Shown here piece after piece: positions 1 through 39,318 of a DNA stretch of 64,000 bases. The notes beneath the pieces were generated by a model. It was given only the letters and a program-made list of their open reading frames with translations, did not search any database and was not told the DNA's origin. A program made the translations under genes and the position numbers. Within the stretch, counting starts at the first letter, position 1. The number at the start of each line of letters is the position of its first letter. This DNA comes from an uncultured Planctomycetota bacterium (GTDB lineage: Bacteria > Planctomycetota > Planctomycetia > Gemmatales > Gemmataceae): positions 96,001 through 160,000 of the forward strand of contig CAWKHF010000010.1 in assembly GCA_963849325.1 (NCBI GenBank), in the 5' to 3' direction.

Positions 1-1379
1 GTAGAAGTTGGCCGGCCCGACCTCGGCGAGCGGCCCTTCCGCCGTCACGCAGCGCGCGGGCGAACTCGTCGAGCGGTCGTTGGCGGCGAGGCTGTCGCGG
101 ATCCAGCGGTAATAGGCGTAGGCCCGCTTCGTGCCCCAGCGCCGCGCGATCGACGCGCAGCAGGTCCGCCCATTGCAGCGCCCAGAAGTCGGCGAACTCC
201 GGCCGCCGCAGCAATTCCTCGACCAGCCGGGCGCGGCGGTCGGGCCGCTCGTCGGCCAGGAAGCGCCGCGCCTCGGCGGCCGTCGGCAGCGTGCCGATCA
301 CGTCGAGATAGACGCGGCGCAGATACTCGGCGTCGTCGGCCAGTTCCGAGGGCAGGATGTTCAGCTTGCGCAGCTTGCGAAACACCAGGCGATCGATGAA
401 GTTGTTCTCGGGCACGGCCGGATAGTGCTCGATGCGTTCGGCGCGCGGCACGAGGACGCGGAAGGTATCCACGGCGTTCATGAAGCTGGCCATGACGGCC
501 GCCTCGCCGGGCGTCTCGCCGGCCATGACCAGGCCGCTCGGCTGCACCGTGGCCAGGCCGTCGTTGTTCGACTGAAACTTGGCGTGGGCGGTCACGTCGA
601 CCTCGCGGCCGTCGGTGTAGCGGGCGACGACGCGCAGCTGCTGCCGGCCGCGCAGGGCGAGGACGCGCTCGCGCGGCTCGACGCGGATCGACGCCACGAC
701 TCGGATCGTCGCGCGTCGCCGAACGGCAGGCCGGCGGCGATCCAGGCGCGGACGGTCTCGTAGTCGCCGGAGCCGGCCGCGATGCGGGCGCCGCCGCCGT
801 GCGGCATCTGCCCGGTCATCTTGCGCAGCAGCAGGCTCTGCTCCGGCGCGGCCGGGAAGACGCGCCGGCCGCGCGCCTCCTTGGTCAGGGCGGCGTAGTC
901 GGCGGGCGGATCGAAGCCGAAGACCGACAGCTTGAACCCGTTCTGCCCTTCCGCCTTGCCGTGACAGCCGGACGAGTTGCAGCCGAAGCGGCTCAGGATC
1001 GGCACGATGTCGTTCTCGAAGTTGAAACGCCGCGGCTCTGCGCTGCCTTCCACGGTGACGGCGACGTTCAGCGTGCGTCCTTCCGCCTGCACCCGCACGG
1101 CCGTTGTCCCGTCTCCTACTGCCGTGGAGGACACCGGCCGGAGTGACGCGGACGATACGGGGATCGAGCGACTCGAACCGCGCGGCGTGCGTGCGATCGA
1201 CGAGCCGGCCGTTGGCGGTTCGGCCCGGTTATCAGCAGGGAATAGCGGGCCGTGGGGCCGTGCAGGCGGAGGGTAGGGGGATCGGCCGTCACCTCAACGA
1301 AGTCCTCCGCCGCCGCGCCGAAGGTCGGCGCCAGAACGAGCAGACAGAGGGCGGTCAGAGGACGGCCGAGGAATGTCAT
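1..1379 (-). CDS. DUF1549/DUF1553 planctomycete surface protein with Ig-like (Big_2) repeat; runs off the left edge; frameshifted
   Basis: Signal peptide MTFLGRPLTALCLLVLAP; FENDIVPILSRFGCNSSGCHGKAEGQNGFKLSVFGFDP and HGGG motifs; coding frame switches near 1190 and 705. Confidence 0.8.
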
Positions 1380-3331: not shown

Positions 3332-4385
3332 CGCGGAGCGGCCGCGCAGCAGGTAGCCGAGCACCGCCTGGGCGGAGTCGTCGAGCGTTTCCAGGCGGCT
3401 GATTTCGTACCACTCTTCGAGGACCAGGCGCGTCAACTCCTGGAAGAATTGCTGCGGGATTGCGGGCGCGCACCAGCACCGGACTGACGCCGTCGTCCGG
3501 GCGGCTGTCCAGCAACTCGACGCCGACCACGTCGCGCAGCTTCAACAGCGCCGCGGCCAGACGACGCTGCTCGGCCCCGTCGGCCGAGTCACCTTCGCGG
3601 TCGCGCGGCGAACCTTCTTGACATCGATGCGGACCAGTAGCGGATGATTGTCGAGGCGGTCGCGGATCTGGGCCACCGAGCCGACGGCGGCGATGCGGCC
3701 GTGGGCCATGATGGCGACGTGGTCGGTCAGCTTCTCCAGCTCTTCCAGTTCGTGGCTGGAGACGAGCAGGCACTTGCCCTGCTCGGCCAGGTCGCGGAAC
3801 AGACGGATGAACTCCCAGCGGCCGACCGGGTCGATGCCGCTGAGCGGTTCGTCGAGCACGAGCAGCTCGGGATCGTGCAGCAGCGCCTGGGCCAGCTTGA
3901 CGCGCTGCCGCATGCCCTTGGAGTAGCCGCGCACGCGGCGCTCGGCGCGGTCCGGCCATGCCGACGCGCTCCAGGGCGGCCTCGGTGCGTCGCCGTGCCT
4001 CGCGGCGCGGATAGCCGCACAGCCGGGCCATCGCCTCGACGAACTGCCGGCCGGACATCTCCTCGTAGAAGGCGTCCACCTCGGGGCAGTAGCCGACGTG
4101 CCGCTTGGCGGCCGTGCTCCAGGCGTCGTGGCCCAGCACCTCGACGCGGCCGAGGTCGGGCCGCAGCTGCCCGGTGATGAGGCGCATCAGCGTACTCTTG
4201 CCGGCGCCGTTGGAGCCGACCAGGCCGGTGATGCCGGAGCGCAGCTCCAGCGTCACCTGATTGACGCCGATGACCGGGCCGTACCACTTGGAGACGCGCT
4301 GGCACAGCAGCCGAGGGACTTCGGAAGAAGTGTCGAGGGGCGAGGGGCGAGGGGCAAGGGAAGACGCTTCTTCTTCCTGCGCCAC
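3329..4385 (-). CDS. ABC transporter ATP-binding protein (frameshifted)
   Basis: Walker A GSNGAGKST; signature YSKGMRQR; Walker B LLVLDEP; SSH loop; frame switches near 3955 and 3600-3450; GTG start inferred. Confidence 0.8.
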
Positions 4386-33693: not shown

Positions 33694-33901
33694 GATGTTG
33701 GCGATTGAGTGAAGGATGTTACCGTTTCTCCCGCCGGTCGGGAACGCCGGGTATCCTATGAAATGCGTCCTTGGGCGGCATGGCGATCCTCAATGGCCTC
33801 TGTTACACTTGAAGTATCCACCTTGGGGATTCGAGAGTCCTCCGCGAGACGAGACGTGCCCCGGAGCGCGGGCGTCCCGCCCGCAGACCGAGGAAATCAT
33901 C

Positions 33902-34999
33902 ATGTCCGTTCAGGCGCTGACGTGCCGGGACTGCAACCGGCCTTGCGTGTTCGACCGCATGGCTCCCTATCCGGGCAAGGGCGATGAGCGGACCTACGGC
34001 GTCGGCTGGCGCTGTCCGCAGTGCTTCAAACTCACGCTCGACGTTTGCCCGGTCGGCCCGCTGGTCCCCTCCGACTCGGTTTGCCTCAATTGCGGGTCGG
34101 CCTACGCCGGCGAGGCGGACCCTCTCTGCTGCGGCGCCTGCGGGTTGCCGCGCGACGGCGTCGCCGCCGTTCTCGGCGTCGTCTCTGTACCGGATGATCC
34201 GCTGGCGGCCGCACGCGATGCCTTCGCTGCTGGGTTGATCCGCCGCGGACTGGCGATCCTCAACCTCGCCCTGCGGCGCGATCTCGGTCTGGCGGAGGCC
34301 TGGTCGGCCAAATGCTCCTTCCTCGATGCACTGGGGTTCCGCAAGACGAAAGTGACCATGCTGGAAGCGGCCCTCGATGCCGGGGGTCCGGCCTCGTTGT
34401 GGGTCAGTTACGGATACACGCTGCAACAGATGGATCGCCACCCGGAAGCGGTCGCGGCCTATCGGCGTTATCTGGAACGGGAGCCATCGGGTCCGTGGGC
34501 AGGAGTCGCCTGCTGCAACCAGGCCAATTCCTTGATCCGCATGGGCGATCCGACCGCCGCCGATGCGCTCTATCAGCAGGCCATTGCCCTCGAACCCGGC
34601 CGCGTCAGCCATGCCGTCAATTACATCCGTTTGCTGATCGACAAACAGAAGTGGGACGAAGCGTTGGCCGTGATTGATACGGCCCTGACGAGGGCGGAAG
34701 TGTCCACGGACATCATCGCCTTGCGGGAGGACCGGGCCGCTGTCCTGGTGGCCCAGGAGCGCGGCGCGGAAGCGCTGGCCAACGCCGAAGAAGCCTTGGC
34801 CCTCGGTTCCGATTCCGTATCGGCGCACTATTTCCGCGGACGCGCCCTGAACCTGCTCGGCCGACTGGAGGAGGCGCGAACCGAGATGCTCCGCGTCCTC
34901 ACGCTGGACCCCAACAACGAGGCCGGCAAGCAGGCGCTGGAGACGCTGGACTCGGTGCTCTTGTGGGGCTGGCCGGGACCGAAACTCCATCTTGGTTAA
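33902..34999 (+). CDS. Cys-rich N-terminus plus TPR repeats
   Basis: Four CxxC-type motifs followed by TPR-like helices. Confidence 0.75.
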   Translation: MSVQALTCRDCNRPCVFDRMAPYPGKGDERTYGVGWRCPQCFKLTLDVCPVGPLVPSDSVCLNCGSAYAGEADPLCCGACGLPRDGVAAVLGVVSVPDDPLAAARDAFAAGLIRRGLAILNLALRRDLGLAEAWSAKCSFLDALGFRKTKVTMLEAALDAGGPASLWVSYGYTLQQMDRHPEAVAAYRRYLEREPSGPWAGVACCNQANSLIRMGDPTAADALYQQAIALEPGRVSHAVNYIRLLIDKQKWDEALAVIDTALTRAEVSTDIIALREDRAAVLVAQERGAEALANAEEALALGSDSVSAHYFRGRALNLLGRLEEARTEMLRVLTLDPNNEAGKQALETLDSVLLWGWPGPKLHLG

Positions 35000-35159: not shown

Positions 35160-35934
35160 ATGAGATTGCCGATTCGAGCTCTTGGCCTGCTGACCGTGCT
35201 GTCCCTGGCGGCGACTCCGTGCGGCCGAGGGACAAGGGACGCCGGGCAAGGCGTCGCCACGCTACACGACCGCCGCTTCGAGCACCGCCGGCGGCAGCGG
35301 CAAGTATTACATGAATCGGGAGATCGCCTTCGTCATGGGACATCAGGGGGCCGGCTGGCTCGAACGTCCCGAGCGCGAGAAAGAAGAACAGCCTAAAAAA
35401 CTGCTGGCGACGCTGGAACTCAAGCCGGGCCAGGTCGTCGCCGACATCGGCGCCGGCAGCGGCTATCACACCTTCCGCATGGCCGAGAAGGTCGGACCAC
35501 GCGGCAAGGTGCTGGCCGTGGACATCCAGAAGGAAATGCTCGACATCATCCGCCAGCGCATGAAGAAGGAGAAGGTGGCCAACGTCGAGCCGATCCTCGG
35601 CACCGAGACCGATCCGAAACTACCGGACAACGGCGTCGATTTGATCCTGATGGTGGACGTTTATCACGAATTCGCCTTCCCTTATGAGATGACGGAAGCG
35701 CTGGTCAAGGCCCTCAAGCCCGGCGGCCGGATCGCGTTCGTCGAATTTCGCCGGGAAGACGAGAAGGTACCGATCCTGCTGGCGCACAAGATGACGGTGA
35801 AGCAAGTGCTCAAGGAGATGGGGCCGCACGCGCTCAAGCACGTCAAGACGATCGACTCGCTGCCGTGGCAGCACGTTATCCTCTTCGAGAAGAAGGCGGC
35901 CGGCAAGGATGTTCCGCAGGGCCGCGAGCGTTAG
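35160..35934 (+). CDS. secreted class I SAM methyltransferase (frameshifted 5' part)
   Basis: VADIGAGSGY, AVDIQ, MVDVYHE, LPWQH. Confidence 0.85.
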
Positions 35935-35959: not shown

Positions 35960-36022
35960 CCCCGGATAACACGGATAACACGGATAAAACAAAAGAAGCG
36001 TTCTCGTTTTCTTTATCCGTTT
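35960..36022. repeat. 9-bp-periodic palindrome, left part (right part at 40224-40252)
   Basis: CGGATAACACGGATAACACGGATAAAAC; complementary ATCCGTTTTATCCGTGTTATCCGTGG at 40224. Confidence 0.8.
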
Positions 36023-36153
36023 GTAACCGTTCACCGATTTTTCAGCAGTTTTTCAGTTCCAGACATGCCGTCTGACCATGAAAAGTGTCGTCCCAGCCCA
36101 CCCAGGCAGAATGTCTGGGGCCGAAAAAAGGCTGGAGGGTGGTGAACGGTTAC
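36023..36153. mobile_element. 131-bp IS66-type MITE, left copy
   Basis: GTAACCGTTCACC/GGTGAACGGTTAC; flanks ATCCGTTT (left) and GCCCGGAG (right). Confidence 0.85.
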
Positions 36154-36236: not shown

Positions 36237-36279
36237 TTGACAACCCTCCTCCCCCCAACTAAACTGAATTAGTGCACTA
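36237..36279 (+). promoter_or_regulatory. sigma70 promoter with putative GntR operator
   Basis: TTGACA (36237)-17 bp-TAAACT (36260); palindrome TAGTGCACTA at 36270-36279. Confidence 0.65.
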
Positions 36280-36294: not shown

Positions 36295-36690
36295 ATGCTC
36301 ATTGACCCGAAAAGCCCGATTCCGATCTTTCAACAAATTGCGGCGCAAATGCGGCAACACATCGCCTTGGGGGTCTATAAGCCGAAGGAATCACTGCCCT
36401 CCCTGCGAAGCTTGGCCGCTGACATTCAGGTGAATCCCAACACCGTTCAAAAAGCCTATGACGAGTTGACCCGCGAAGGCCTCGTTGAGTCACGGCGCGG
36501 AGCGGGCCTTTTCGTGGCCGATCGGGCCAGCGCAGCCGGAACGACCCAAACCGAGAGACGAATTCATCGCCAGCTTTCCCGGGTCATTGCCAATGGTCTC
36601 AGGAAGCGAATTGCACCCGAGCGAATTCGAACCCTGTTTCGCGAAGCCCTCGACAGCCAGGTGGCAGCCACGACCTGGAGCACGCCATGA
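36295..36690 (+). CDS. GntR (YtrA subfamily) regulator
   Basis: PIFQQI, LPSLRSLA, VNPNTVQKAY, RRGAGLFV. Confidence 0.9.
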   Translation: MLIDPKSPIPIFQQIAAQMRQHIALGVYKPKESLPSLRSLAADIQVNPNTVQKAYDELTREGLVESRRGAGLFVADRASAAGTTQTERRIHRQLSRVIANGLRKRIAPERIRTLFREALDSQVAATTWSTP

Positions 36691-37592
36691 CCCCCATGCT
36701 CATAGAGTTCTCCGCAGTCACAAAAGAGTTCAAGAACCATCGGGCGCTGGACTCTCTGAGTTTGCAATTCCGGGAGGGGAGCACCGTGGGCTTGCTCGGT
36801 CCCAACGGTGCCGGCAAGACCACCTGCCTGAAAATGATGCTCGGCCTATTGCGGCCTACCTCCGGTTCGGTGTCCATCTTCGGATGGGACCTCTGGTTGG
36901 AGGGTCCGAAGATCCGACAGGAGATTGGGTATGTTCCGGAAGATCCCTGGCTCTACCCCTGGATGACCGTTCGCCAGGTCATCCGCTTCGCCTCATCCAT
37001 GTATGAGCGTTGGTCGAGCGCTCTGGCGGATGATCTTCTGGTCAATCTGAATTTGCCTCCCGACTGTACTGTCAAAAACCTATCTAAAGGAATGCGCATG
37101 AAGGCGGCGCTCTTGGTGGCCCTGGCCCATCGTCCCCGCTTGCTGATCCTTGACGAACCCATGTCGGGGCTTGATCCACTCGCCAGGGAGGACTTGGTAG
37201 AAATTCTCATCAAGTTGAGAGGTGAAGAGACAGAGTGCATCATTATCTCTTCCCACCAGATTGATGACGTCACTCGACTGGCCAACGAGGTCGTCATCCT
37301 CCATGCGGGCAAGCGGCTCGTGCATGCGTCCATTGATGAATTGCTTGGGACCACGAAGCGGGTCGAGGCGGTCTTGCTGGATGGCCGCCTTCCTGAACGT
37401 GTCTTGCAACAAACTGTGTGGCAGCGAGTCGATCGACGAACCTGGTCGATGACCTTGCATCCGTTCGACGCCACCATGGTCAATACCTTGCGGGAAGCCA
37501 ACCCGATTTCATCCCTAACGGTGATCGACATGGGCCTGGAACAGGTCTTCAAAGACTTTATTCGAGGAGCAACGCCATGTTGCGCACCCTGA
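36687..37592 (+). CDS. ABC ATP-binding protein (YtrB-like)
   Basis: GPNGAGKTT, LSKGM, LILDEP, SSH. Confidence 0.9.
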   Translation: MTPMLIEFSAVTKEFKNHRALDSLSLQFREGSTVGLLGPNGAGKTTCLKMMLGLLRPTSGSVSIFGWDLWLEGPKIRQEIGYVPEDPWLYPWMTVRQVIRFASSMYERWSSALADDLLVNLNLPPDCTVKNLSKGMRMKAALLVALAHRPRLLILDEPMSGLDPLAREDLVEILIKLRGEETECIIISSHQIDDVTRLANEVVILHAGKRLVHASIDELLGTTKRVEAVLLDGRLPERVLQQTVWQRVDRRTWSMTLHPFDATMVNTLREANPISSLTVIDMGLEQVFKDFIRGATPCCAP

Positions 37593-38254
37593 TTTGGAAA
37601 GATGTGTTGGCCAATCGCTTTTCGCTCTTGCTCGCAGCTATCTTGCTCGTAGCAGCCTATGGCGTGGCAGCGATCATGGGTTTGCTAGATCCCGTGATGT
37701 CTGCTCAACCGTCGTGGGGACGACGACTGGCCGAGATTTTGTTTTTCGGCAGTCTGATGAGCTATGCCGTGGCCCATTTATCCCTGGCGGTCTTATCGGG
37801 AAACTTGATCGCTGGGGAACGCGTCCGTCGATCCGCCGAATTCCTCGCCTATCTGCCGCCAAGCCGGGGGATGGTTTTGCGGGCCAAGGCAACGGTGCTT
37901 GGCGCCGTGGCACTCCTCTTGCTGTTTATCCCTCTTGCGATGACAGGGTTGGGGGCGTTCTTCGATAAGGCCTCCCTTGTCGATATCTATCGTAAGACTG
38001 CGAGCGGGTGTGTTGTCATCTGGGCGATGGGCTTTTGTGCTTCCGGAATCGGTTGGCTGGCATCCTGTTGTTTACAGAGCAACGCCGTCGCCATCCTCTT
38101 CGCTCTTTTATCGCCCTATATCCTGATGATACTAATCATGCGCGTGATTCAGAGTGCAGAACCCATGGCCATCTTGGTGGCAGCCAGCTTGTCCATCGGC
38201 TTGGCAGGATTCCTGTTTGGAACGATGCACTACCTTAATCGCGTGGAGCCTTAA
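37577..38254 (+). CDS. ABC-2 permease
   Basis: LIWKD, GERVRRSAEFLAYLPPSR; about 6 TM segments. Confidence 0.85.
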   Translation: MLRTLIWKDVLANRFSLLLAAILLVAAYGVAAIMGLLDPVMSAQPSWGRRLAEILFFGSLMSYAVAHLSLAVLSGNLIAGERVRRSAEFLAYLPPSRGMVLRAKATVLGAVALLLLFIPLAMTGLGAFFDKASLVDIYRKTASGCVVIWAMGFCASGIGWLASCCLQSNAVAILFALLSPYILMILIMRVIQSAEPMAILVAASLSIGLAGFLFGTMHYLNRVEP

Positions 38255-38274
38255 TTGGAAGGGAGGGACGATCG

Positions 38275-39318
38275 ATGCTACGTCTCAGGTCAATAAGGAT
38301 CAAGGTAATCATCTATGCCCTCACTCCAATCCTTGTGTTCGGGAGCGCTTATCGCCTGGCACGAGTTTTTCTCCCGGCAAGCGAAGATGCGGCTGCGACC
38401 CACGACGAATTATTTAGCGAGGAAGAGTGGATCGAACAAATCGCAGATGCCTTCAGACTCTATGCCCAGGCATTTGAGAATCGCTTTCCGGACGTGGAAT
38501 ACCTCTATGGGGATGAGTTGATGGGAGCCGTCAGAGAAAAACTGAAAATTCCCCGTTGCGCAGGGTGGTCACCGGCCAGCGGCTTCGGTCGGTTGACCAA
38601 ACTACAAAGGAGTGACCCGACGTTTGGTTACCACGGTTCGGGAGCTAGCCTTGGGGACCCCAATCGGGTCCTCGTTCATTGGTCAACGGCGGAGGGCAGG
38701 TCTCGAGTCATTTTCTGCGATCTGTCCCATCGTGAGGTCGATGGTGGTGAGTTGCTGAATCTTCTTTCGCCCTGGCAACCGGTTGCCAACCAATGTGTTG
38801 TGCGGGTGGGTTCCGGCGGATCGGGGACGATCGTTTCGCCAAAAGGATTGATTGTCACCGCTGCTCATGTCCTTCCTTCGAGCGGTTCGAGTATCGATAT
38901 CCATTTTGCCGATGGCCGTGCGATGACATCGACCGTGGTTGCTCAAAGTAAACGATTCGATGTCGCCGTTCTCAGAATTCCCGTGGACCAGTCGATTCCT
39001 TTCGTTCGGCTGGAAGAACGACATGTTAGCGAGGATCAGGTGGCCTGGATCATAGGATATGGCGGTGGTCGTTCCGAGCCCGCTATTCGCCAAGTACGAA
39101 CCGTCCAGTACGTCCTCGATGAGTTGATTACGACCTGGAACAATGTCATCGGCGGCGATTGCGGCGGGGCCGTGTTGAACGCCAAGGGATGTCTCATCGG
39201 CGTTCTTGACACCCTAGCTGAGCCCCACCCAAGATACTGTCGAACGATTTCTTCTCCCACGCTGCTGAAGGTTTTCCCGGTTTTGTTAGAGCAGGTCGGG
39301 GGGATGAGGTCACCGTGA
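38275..39318 (+). CDS. membrane-anchored trypsin-like peptidase with Cys at the nucleophile position
   Basis: GSGTIV, TAAHV, DVAVL, GGDCGGAVLN..G.LIGV. Confidence 0.75.
   Translation: MLRLRSIRIKVIIYALTPILVFGSAYRLARVFLPASEDAAATHDELFSEEEWIEQIADAFRLYAQAFENRFPDVEYLYGDELMGAVREKLKIPRCAGWSPASGFGRLTKLQRSDPTFGYHGSGASLGDPNRVLVHWSTAEGRSRVIFCDLSHREVDGGELLNLLSPWQPVANQCVVRVGSGGSGTIVSPKGLIVTAAHVLPSSGSSIDIHFADGRAMTSTVVAQSKRFDVAVLRIPVDQSIPFVRLEERHVSEDQVAWIIGYGGGRSEPAIRQVRTVQYVLDELITTWNNVIGGDCGGAVLNAKGCLIGVLDTLAEPHPRYCRTISSPTLLKVFPVLLEQVGGMRSP

Follow-up and report, generated by a model that had tools for sequence, protein, structure and literature searches.

Cysteine-type chymotrypsin-fold proteases are regarded as a hallmark of RNA viruses, and replacing the Ser of a catalytic triad by Cys, or the reverse, is usually held to wreck activity, so that such swaps are expected to be rare and slow in evolution. 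The window considered here, a 64,000-nucleotide stretch of one contig from an uncultured Planctomycetota bacterium, nevertheless encodes a trypsin-fold peptidase with Cys at the nucleophile position. This raises two questions: where the Cys came from, and whether the enzyme that carries it still works.

The protease gene (Table 1) has no internal stop codon, and the intact His and Asp motifs, the GDCGG motif and the unbroken frame described in the original prediction can all be read directly from the sequence. Pfam matched residues 182–310 to Trypsin_2 (E 8.9e-19; 69.1 bits, cut-off 27.6), and the top fold matches of the AlphaFold2 model (pLDDT 87.6) were DegS and HtrA. The triad columns of the family profile line up with those of the catalytic His, Asp and Ser in the HtrA2 and DegS structures. 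The His198 column is invariant in alignment A1 and matches the HtrA2 and DegS His, the Asp229 column is invariant in alignments A1 and A2, and His198, G293, G294, D295 and G297 likewise show no variation in A2. The protein is thus a PDZ-less HtrA/DegS-type Trypsin_2 peptidase of chymotrypsin fold. Besides Cys296, it contains Cys148 and Cys322.

The unrecognised N-domain that had been proposed was borne out, and the N-terminal transmembrane anchor is likewise predicted here. In the model, an N-terminal helix covers residues 2–32, with a hydrophobic core at V11-Y26 and R3, R5, R8 and K10 just N-terminal to it, and two short helices C-terminal to the barrel end the model. The predicted topology is a single membrane helix with the N-terminus inside, similar to DegS, which has a single N-terminal membrane anchor. 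The family-specific N-domain was modelled with high confidence in isolation (pLDDT 91.4, pTM 0.84), and it matched no Pfam family, no solved fold above a VIA Z of 3.4, and no PDB entry at E ≤ 0.001 in Foldseek (best E 0.57). Its matches in the Atlas reached a top score of 0.82 and were hypothetical proteins throughout. Several type IV pilins were retrieved for this domain at VIA Z 2.3–3.3, which was not strong enough to retain that likeness.

Table 1 Features of the protease locus (positions in the window; strand + is the forward strand)
Feature	Coordinates	Strand	Details and basis
Promoter-like site TTGACA, 17 nt, TAAACT; ~30 nt upstream of GntR gene	36237..36265	+	10/12 positions match
Small GntR-family regulator, 131 aa, YtrA-like size	36295..36690	+	Pfam GntR E 5e-18, residues 13-74
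ABC transporter ATPase, 301 aa	36687..37592	+	Pfam ABC_tran E 1.8e-29
ABC-2-type permease, 225 aa from ATG 37577	37577..38254	+	ABC2_membrane_2, below cut-off
Purine-rich Shine-Dalgarno-like stretch GGAAGGGAGGGA, ahead of protease start	38257..38268	+	Read from sequence; putative function
Protease gene, 347 aa	38275..39318	+	Anchor, N-domain, Trypsin_2 domain with His198, Asp229, Cys296
Putative single transmembrane helix, residues ~11-33, N-in	38305..38373	+	Model helix and four preceding basic residues
Family-specific N-domain, residues 45-172 (128 residues), alpha/beta	38407..38790	+	Modelled alone
Segment of 41 aa, repeated in tandem in most other population variants; first barrel 1 strands and His motif	38780..38904	+	
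His198 codon CAT, in VTAAHV	38866..38868	+	Read from sequence
Asp229 codon GAT, in FDVAVL	38959..38961	+	Read from sequence
Cys296 codon TGC, in GGDCGG, nucleophile position; TCC (Ser) in relatives	39160..39162	+	Read from sequence

Comparison with characterised proteases placed the protein near DegS and MarP. The closest likeness was to DegS lacking its PDZ domain (VIA Z 24.4, rmsd 3.1, 183 residues aligned; Foldseek E 5.6e-14). Unlike members of the DegS/HtrA family, which we take to be MEROPS S1C, the window protein has Cys296 in place of the Ser of a His-Asp-Ser triad, matches no Pfam PDZ family at E ≤ 0.1 and carries the N-domain instead, and is encoded within a GntR/ABC-2 operon. The NCBIfam models degP_htrA_DO, DegS, DegQ and HhoA all scored far below their cut-offs (best 50.4 bits against 416.2). 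MarP of Mycobacterium tuberculosis (Rv3671c) is similar in being a membrane-tethered, PDZ-less, extracytoplasmic S1 protease (fold match 3k6z, VIA Z 23.6, rmsd 2.4, 170 residues aligned; NCBIfam NF033740, E 2.9e-10, 39.8 bits, below the cut-off of 250), but has no counterpart of the N-domain or of the operon. MarP has a Ser nucleophile, several membrane helices, and redox control through a disulfide.

A kinship with viral 3C proteases, as the original prediction had implied, was not supported. The window protein shares with 3C and 3C-like enzymes the chymotrypsin fold, a triad of His, Asp(Glu) and Cys, and a motif of the G-x-C-G-G type. The best matches of the window protein were however DegS, HtrA and MarP, and none of the viral Cys-peptidase families (Peptidase_C3, C4, C24, C37 and similar) matched it at E ≤ 0.1; a precomputed Peptidase_C37 tag (PF05416) was present on a single protein of the family, P0001, out of 25. 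In contrast to the viral enzymes, the gene belongs to a bacterial four-gene operon instead of encoding part of a polyprotein, and the Cys is not family-wide. Because its nearest relatives are bacterial HtrA-like proteins that carry Ser, the Cys arose here independently of viral 3C, through a single TCC-to-TGC change.

We next followed the two nucleophiles across the family. It is a small one, found in soil Planctomycetota and comprising some 30 sequence clusters, and among its 27 motif-bearing representatives the nucleophile column holds Ser in 20 and Cys in seven, and nothing else (three further representatives, which are fragments or frameshifted, fell outside this count). Within the window's own lineage, Cys occurs in all 20 variants, and in the protein collection it was found in every motif-spanning member of clusters 1 (7/7) and 5 (9/9), which come from several sources. 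In the nearest lineage outside it, at 84% identity, all 15 listed members have Ser. The conservation of Cys across divergent homologues that had been put forward as a check therefore failed, given the Ser in most representatives and in this close lineage; conversely, close homologues are not uniformly of the Ser type, as P0008 (78% identity to the window protein) also has Cys. Since the 84%-identity lineage keeps Ser, the Cys is dispensable for the function of the family.

At the DNA level, the two compared loci of the window lineage (L082 and L083) both carry TGC, and all three distant relatives with Ser and available DNA (L001, L084 and L185) use TCC, in line with the single-base change suggested from the window alone. 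These codons and their distribution place Ser (TCC) as the ancestral state, from which Cys (TGC) arose by one base, a transversion, and it is fixed in the window's species-level lineage; Cys is only one of six amino acids that lie one base away from TCC. Either one or two origins of Cys would fit the trees: the best tree required two Ser/Cys changes and a clade of P0007 and P0008 was rejected (p 0.023), but a Cys-only clade was not (p-AU 0.39). A GGDCGG motif was also found in the central domain of a separate, three-domain HtrA-like family, in P0054, P0156 and P0184, which form one subclade at 46–54% identity, with His and Asp visible for P0054 and P0156. The retention of Cys at this level of divergence suggests that it can persist for long in a bacterial HtrA scaffold.

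Next, we evaluated the genomic context of the protease. As had been proposed, the gene is associated with a YtrA/ABC-2-type module: the order GntR, ABC ATPase, ABC-2 permease, protease, with the protease last, was found at all four loci with upstream DNA. Orthologues of the GntR gene were found in L001 and L185, and the ATPase gene is kept in L001, L083 and L185. The GntR and ATPase genes share 4 nt where the stop of the first meets the start of the second, and a 16-nt overlap between the ATPase and permease genes is identical in the window and in L001, by alignment with which the permease start was set. The permease matched ABC2_membrane_2 below its cut-off (E 5e-4, 19.8 bits against 27.2), and its L001 orthologue matched ABC2_membrane_4 (E 8.3e-6). 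Regulators of the YtrA subfamily are defined by a GntR winged helix and a short C-terminal part of ~50–60 aa; the regulator here fits this architecture and is followed by the ABC ATPase and ABC-2 permease genes. The same arrangement resembles the Pmt module, and PmtR was the best small-GntR NCBIfam match of the regulator (E 2.9e-15, 56.4 bits, below the cut-off of 200), as PmtA was the best NCBIfam match of the ATPase (E 2.8e-47, 161.3 bits, below the cut-off of 350). Whereas Pmt (PmtABCD) includes two ATPases and two permeases, the window module has one of each, plus the extra protease gene. It defines a small and unstudied type of operon, which combines a GntR regulator, an ABC-2 exporter and an anchored protease with a domain of no known fold.

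Other searches around the operon were less informative. The predicted complex between permease and protease scored 0.03 against a mark of 0.32, which speaks neither for nor against binding. A reading of the locus as a defence system was rejected, as PADLOC returned generic domains only: the protease domain hit LmuA and RT-Protease, and the ATPase hit P-loop models. Promoter and terminator scans of the region gave no excess over shuffled sequence, and the promoter-like site ahead of the GntR gene is a weak lead because two such sites occurred in the region and 1.6 were expected from shuffles. Two imperfect inverted repeats also lie upstream of the GntR gene, at 35980-36020 and 36050-36084.

We then considered whether the protease gene shows signs of selection or of decay. 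Across 97 columns with ≥90% conservation in the family, the window protein deviates at two and P0008 at one, the nucleophile, compared to 0–20 deviations for the 18 full-length Ser sequences. The other deviation of the window protein is P314L, which is not shared by P0008, and no compensating change common to both Cys lineages was obvious. Of 38 polymorphic sites within the lineage, only four fall in conserved columns, against ~10.6 expected (binomial P = 0.009), and three of these four are artefacts of duplication or of one frameshifted variant. The few deviations, together with polymorphisms that avoid conserved columns, show that the protein is still under purifying selection. The within-lineage pN/pS of the gene is ~0.8–1.0, a value that rests on small counts (nine non-synonymous and two to three synonymous changes), and reaches 0.17 and 0.39 for the GntR and ATPase genes of the same operon.

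Population variants of the lineage also differ in structure. Most other variants have the 41-aa segment in tandem duplication: L082 and L083 each align twice over it, P0001-P0005 carry two or three copies of it, and contigs that cross the junction (38904>38780) were recovered in all three DNA runs (X1, X2 and X10). These duplications are in frame and retain VTAAHV in both copies. A 16-nt deletion in L083/P0212 shifts the frame of the C-terminus, and the other 19 of the 20 lineage variants remain in frame to a normal or near-normal C-terminus.

The reading that we favour, with about even confidence, is that the Cys296 protein would be a working peptidase, probably weakened and redox-sensitive. 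The N-terminal helix would anchor it in the inner membrane, with the N-domain and the protease domain in the periplasm, and its gene, coupled in translation, would close the four-gene module that starts with the small GntR repressor. The His198/Asp229 pair would activate the Cys296 thiol for catalysis, probably at an amidase rate below that of the Ser orthologues, and the thiol would probably be sensitive to oxidation outside the cytoplasm. Because of the sub-threshold likeness to the PmtR/PmtA type, we further speculate that the module may export, or protect from, a membrane-active peptide or amphipath, and that the protease may act on material at the membrane's outer face. Catalysis is suggested by an apparatus that is untouched other than at the nucleophile, a column that admits only Ser or Cys, and the occurrence of Cys in two lineages at 78% identity, as well as by the intact gene, the conserved operon and the lack of general decay. 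Several observations suggest the opposite, namely the pN/pS of the gene, the duplications in barrel 1, the frameshifted variant and the Ser of the 84% lineage, and a free thiol is easily inactivated in an oxidising compartment. In addition, hydrolases generally lose their activity when the triad Ser alone is exchanged for Cys, according to one report (PMC6642262), and the reverse swap in TEV protease came at a ~10^4-fold cost in another (PMC4576821). On these figures, a one-step, uncompensated change should cripple amidase activity.

Such costs lend weight to a second explanation, possible although short of probable, in which the protein is a pseudo-protease that has effectively lost cleavage and retains a non-catalytic role, e.g., in substrate binding, as a holdase or chaperone, or as a scaffold or sensor for the ABC-2 module. 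A precedent exists in MamO, described in PMC4794232 as a repurposed HtrA-like protein, which was among the fold matches here (5hm9, Z 22.2) and shares the HtrA fold and a non-canonical active site. The similarity is nonetheless limited (NCBIfam MamO E 2.7e-6, 26 bits, below the cut-off of 800), since the window protein keeps His and Asp with the nucleophile alone changed, and lacks a magnetosome context. Purifying selection fits a retained non-catalytic function equally well as catalysis, and the natural tolerance of duplication alleles within the catalytic barrel, along with a pN/pS not far from 1, would also be expected of a protein that no longer cleaves. This explanation accounts less readily for the retention of the Gly-rich oxyanion motif alongside His198 and Asp229, for a sole observed replacement that preserves nucleophilic chemistry, and for the maintenance of Cys in the three-domain family. 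To our knowledge, dead HtrA folds have usually lost more than one triad residue.

A third explanation, early decay of the gene in this lineage, is unlikely. In that case, the gene would be lost step by step through the nucleophile change, the duplications and the frameshift, and the intact look of the window copy would be deceptive; the widespread duplication alleles, with junctions in every DNA run, the frameshift near the C-terminus of L083/P0212 and the pN/pS close to 1 are all consistent with such a process. Yet nearly all variants keep the frame, the duplications preserve it together with the His motif, polymorphisms avoid conserved columns, and the window protein and P0008 show next to no deviations, with none in P0008 besides the Cys. 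Finally, a sequencing or assembly error at the Cys codon can be dismissed as highly improbable: although the base check relied on Logan contigs of soil runs (X1, X2 and X10 for DNA, X15 for RNA) instead of raw reads, and X1 and X2 may not be independent given their identical differences, the DNA contigs spanning 39160-39162 showed no other letter, and TGC or its Cys recurs in L082, L083 and, without exception, the 16 members of clusters 1 and 5 that span the motif.

In the literature covered, which left out most subscription journals and MEROPS, we found no description of a bacterial protease of HtrA type or chymotrypsin fold that naturally has Cys as its nucleophile. We tentatively suggest that these soil Planctomycetota may offer a nucleophile exchange caught near the event, with 78–84%-identical orthologues that carry Ser or Cys and are both functional. 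If so, the Cys form would represent a cysteine protease of chymotrypsin fold that is cellular and not viral, and its thiol could place its periplasmic activity under redox gating or, as in thiol-subtilisin, bias it to acyl transfer. Considered with the second Cys-keeping family, this would indicate that an HtrA scaffold intrinsically accepts either nucleophile. If the Cys form is instead inactive, it would be an ordinary young pseudo-enzyme. The window protein and a P0007-type Ser orthologue form a natural matched pair for a single nucleophile exchange in an HtrA scaffold, and lend themselves to the question of whether redox state controls a thiol protease in the periplasm. A weak hint that the protease gene is expressed came from one soil metatranscriptome (X15), whose contigs cover 38469-38772, away from the Cys codon.

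The protease is encoded by an open reading frame of 347 amino acids, of which residues 182–310 match Pfam Trypsin_2 (E 8.9e-19), ahead of weaker Pfam matches to Peptidase_S46 and Trypsin and with no PDZ family at E ≤ 0.1. In the family profile, the His, Asp, and nucleophile columns aligned with the catalytic columns of two proteases of solved structure, HtrA2 and DegS. The unbroken frame, the catalytic codons, the Trypsin_2 match, and this alignment confirm the original prediction of His and Asp motifs followed by GDCGG. Clan PA includes viral Cys families, and the prediction had also likened the Cys nucleophile to that of viral 3C; however, no viral cysteine-peptidase family was matched at E ≤ 0.1 (Pfam) and the nearest fold is that of DegS. 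The protease is not kin to viral 3C, and its GDCGG motif is convergent. NCBIfam models for HtrA, DegS, DegP, MarP, and MamO all matched the protease domain far under their cut-offs (top score 50.4 bits vs. a cut-off of 416), and the protein stands outside every curated HtrA equivalog.

Features of the protease and its surroundings (nucleotide positions in the window)
Feature	Position	Residues	Strand	Details
TPR-repeat protein	33716–34999		+	Cys-rich N-terminal motifs
SAM-dependent methyltransferase	35311–35934		+	
GntR regulator	36295–36690		+	131 aa; Pfam GntR E 5e-18
ABC ATPase	36687–37592		+	ABC_tran E 1.8e-29
ABC-2-like permease	37577–38254		+	16-nt overlap with ATPase, same in L001
Protease	38275–39318		+	
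Long N-terminal helix		2–32		AlphaFold2 model
Alpha/beta domain (N-domain)	38407–38790	~45–172		AlphaFold2 model
Two-barrel protease domain, then two short helices		175–326		AlphaFold2 model
Cys148	38716–38718	148	+	N-domain
Segment duplicated in other variants	38780–38904			41 aa; first barrel strands and catalytic His motif
His198	38866–38868	198	+	CAT, in VTAAHV; read from sequence
Asp229	38959–38961	229	+	GAT, in FDVAVL; read from sequence
Cys296	39160–39162	296	+	TGC, in GGDCGG; read from sequence
Cys322	39238–39240	322	+	last barrel strand

An AlphaFold2 model from a 23-row alignment (pLDDT 87.6, pTM 0.68) showed three parts. The protease domain most resembled PDZ-deleted DegS (Foldseek E 5.6e-14; VIA Z 24.4, rmsd 3.1, 183 aligned), followed by Rv3671c/MarP (Z 23.6), HhoA, Deg1, and MamO. 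Within the N-terminal helix, a hydrophobic core (V11–Y26) is preceded by four basic residues, which suggests a signal anchor in N-in orientation that would place both domains outside the cytoplasm, in agreement with the transmembrane anchor predicted originally. The N-domain, which that prediction had called unrecognised, was modelled alone with pLDDT 91.4 and pTM 0.84; neither a Pfam nor an Atlas family matched it, and no solved structure resembled it (VIA matches reached Z 3.4 at most, and Foldseek gave none at E ≤ 0.001). As leads only, several type IV pilins were among its weak fold matches (Z 2.3–3.3), and in the nearest Atlas cluster that has any Pfam annotation, 17% of the members carry SBP_bac_10. 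Cys148 and Cys322 were both present in 14/14 rows of one clade and both missing from the other (7/7 rows covering both columns), a co-occurrence that reflects only one evolutionary event; the pattern may fit an inter-domain disulfide, which would imply an oxidising location. MarP is under disulfide control. Taken together, these data show an HtrA/DegS-type protease that lacks PDZ, has a predicted membrane anchor and a novel N-domain, and is encoded in a conserved GntR/ABC-2 operon; by analogy, it would work like an anchored protease of the DegS/MarP type.

Few assembled genomes carry the family. A word-indexed search returned 25 members (E ≤ 1e-78), then, after a sharp fall in significance, 12 generic PDZ-bearing HtrA proteins (E ≥ 8.9e-8), while an exhaustive search returned only 8 representatives at E ≤ 1e-30. 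Only one of 80 loci kept from species-representative genomes held a full-length relative (L001); a second genome scan added L185, and 200 genomes of the window's own taxonomic family (8 of the same genus) gave no protease match at 1e-20. The motif was present in 27 of 30 family representatives, the remainder being fragments or frameshifted, and read Cys in 7 and Ser in 20. The proposed check for Cys across homologs gave a divided answer: beyond the window lineage itself (P0001–P0006, 98–99% identity), Cys occurs in P0008 (78%), but the 20 Ser representatives include P0007, an 84% relative. Nucleophile state was fixed within clusters formed at 90% identity, i.e., Cys in 7/7 (cluster 1, window type) and 9/9 (cluster 5, duplicated type) members with the motif, and Ser in 4/4 such members of the P0010 cluster and in 15/15 among the members listed for each of the P0007 and P0011 clusters. 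Since the Ser relatives L001, L084, and L185 use TCC, Cys arose by one C-to-G transversion. These data show a single-base replacement of the Ser nucleophile by Cys in the window lineage, and its fixation there.

In the tree, P0009 (Ser), P0007 (Ser), P0008 (Cys), and the window pair (Cys) formed one well-supported clade (100/99) with weak inner order. The best tree placed the window with P0007 (63/45) and required two nucleophile changes, whereas a Cys-only clade was 2.6 log-likelihood units worse and not rejected (p-AU 0.39); a clade of P0007 and P0008 was rejected (p 0.023). Either a single Cys origin kept across 22% divergence or two Ser/Cys interchanges are thus possible, and neither history is expected of a random loss-of-function hit.

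Next, we considered whether the protein is still under selection. Over the 97 family columns conserved at ≥90%, a consensus on which near relatives weigh, the window protein departs at two only (S296C and P314L) and P0008 at the nucleophile only, while the 18 Ser-bearing full-length rows show 0–20 departures. Among 20 lineage variants, 4 of 38 variable positions fell in conserved columns vs. ~10.6 expected (binomial P = 0.009), and three of these four stem from a duplicated copy or a frameshifted variant. These data show that the window-lineage protein is still constrained, its remaining conserved core being intact. We consider it an even call that the Cys296 thiol is still the nucleophile, probably a slower and redox-sensitive one.

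The main alternative, a non-catalytic protein that only binds, is somewhat less probable. Thiol-trypsin and thiol-subtilisin lost amidase activity. In hydrolase triads, Ser-to-Cys exchange generally breaks activity, according to one study (PMC6642262), and others describe MamO as a repurposed HtrA-like protein (PMC4794232) and a ~10^4-fold loss for Cys-to-Ser TEV protease, recovered by directed evolution (PMC4576821). The original prediction had itself allowed for a single-base inactivating change: one base did change (TCC to TGC) and was fixed. Early decay of the protease gene in the window lineage is improbable given the constraint described above, although several observations count against continued selection. 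Compared with L082 or L083, other loci of its lineage (98.5% DNA identity), the window shows 9 non-synonymous vs. 2–3 synonymous differences in the protease gene (pN/pS ~0.8–1.0, from small counts), next to 0.17 for the GntR gene, 0.39 for the ATPase, and 0.56–0.85 for the permease. Most other population variants also carry an in-frame tandem duplication, with two copies in P0002–P0005 and three in P0001; it occurs in L082 and L083, and the soil runs X1, X2, and X10 each yield contigs across its junction, while the window and cluster 1 are single-copy, and its first copy has diverged (GSET..II vs. GSGT..IV). In L083/P0212, a 16-nt deletion just past GVLDT (L083 ~3990–4040, window ~39200–39220) shifts the frame and truncates the C-terminal ~40 residues. 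Finally, an artefactual Cys codon is exceedingly improbable, as soil contigs (rather than raw reads) from X1, X2, and X10 span it with no other letter, X1 and X2 being possibly non-independent.

Catalysis by the Cys form is putative, and the value of the case is that matched Ser and Cys orthologs make the nucleophile exchange directly testable. A full-text literature search, covering few subscription journals and with MEROPS outside its scope, returned no paper on a bacterial HtrA-type or chymotrypsin-fold protease with a natural Cys nucleophile. PF13365 matched at 23 places in the window's own genome (15 Ser, some overlapping; 7 without canonical motif; 1 Cys), and a motif check identified the window protease as the sole Cys gene. 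The 142 more distant Trypsin_2 representatives comprised 130 with Ser, 4 with Cys, and 8 with another residue or no motif. Of the four proteins with Cys, three (P0054, P0156, and P0184) belong to one family of ~720–750 aa that comprises three trypsin-like domains; two of these three proteins also have PDZ_2, and GGDCGG occupies their central-domain nucleophile column in all three (the P0184 alignment being partial). They are mutually 46–54% identical within a five-row subclade that includes two Ser members, which indicates that Cys can persist long in a bacterial HtrA-like scaffold. Separately, P0104 (two trypsin domains and PDZ) reads GNCGG, and three neighboring Trypsin_2 genes of the window's genome (L170, L173, and L175; contig C1:175919–179901) lack G-D/N-S-G-G by regex and may be a cluster of degenerate proteases.

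The protease follows three same-strand genes with overlapping or tightly spaced junctions, and this four-gene order was kept in 4/4 loci with upstream DNA (window, L001, L083, and L185), L082 beginning within the permease gene. L001, from a Planctomycetaceae MAG, encodes a 51% identical protease among flanking genes that differ from the window's; the TPR-repeat and methyltransferase genes upstream are absent there and thus lie outside the module. The best NCBIfam names were PmtR for the regulator and PmtA for the ATPase, both under cut-off; the Pmt system has two ATPases and two permeases. PADLOC gave only generic domain matches on the module. In L185 (5001–6030; long-read Planctomycetota MAG), a frameshift near residue 145 interrupts the protease ortholog, and the ATPase gene before it also looks frameshifted; errors in the long reads, not true gene disruptions, are probably the cause. 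Ahead of the GntR gene, a gap of 360 nt holds two imperfect inverted repeats (35980–36020, 17 nt, 82% complementarity; 36050–36084, 15 nt, 73%) that could be operator candidates. In the soil metatranscriptome run X15, two 151-nt contigs match the protease gene where it encodes the N-domain (38469–38772), a weak hint of transcription, with DNA carry-over possible.
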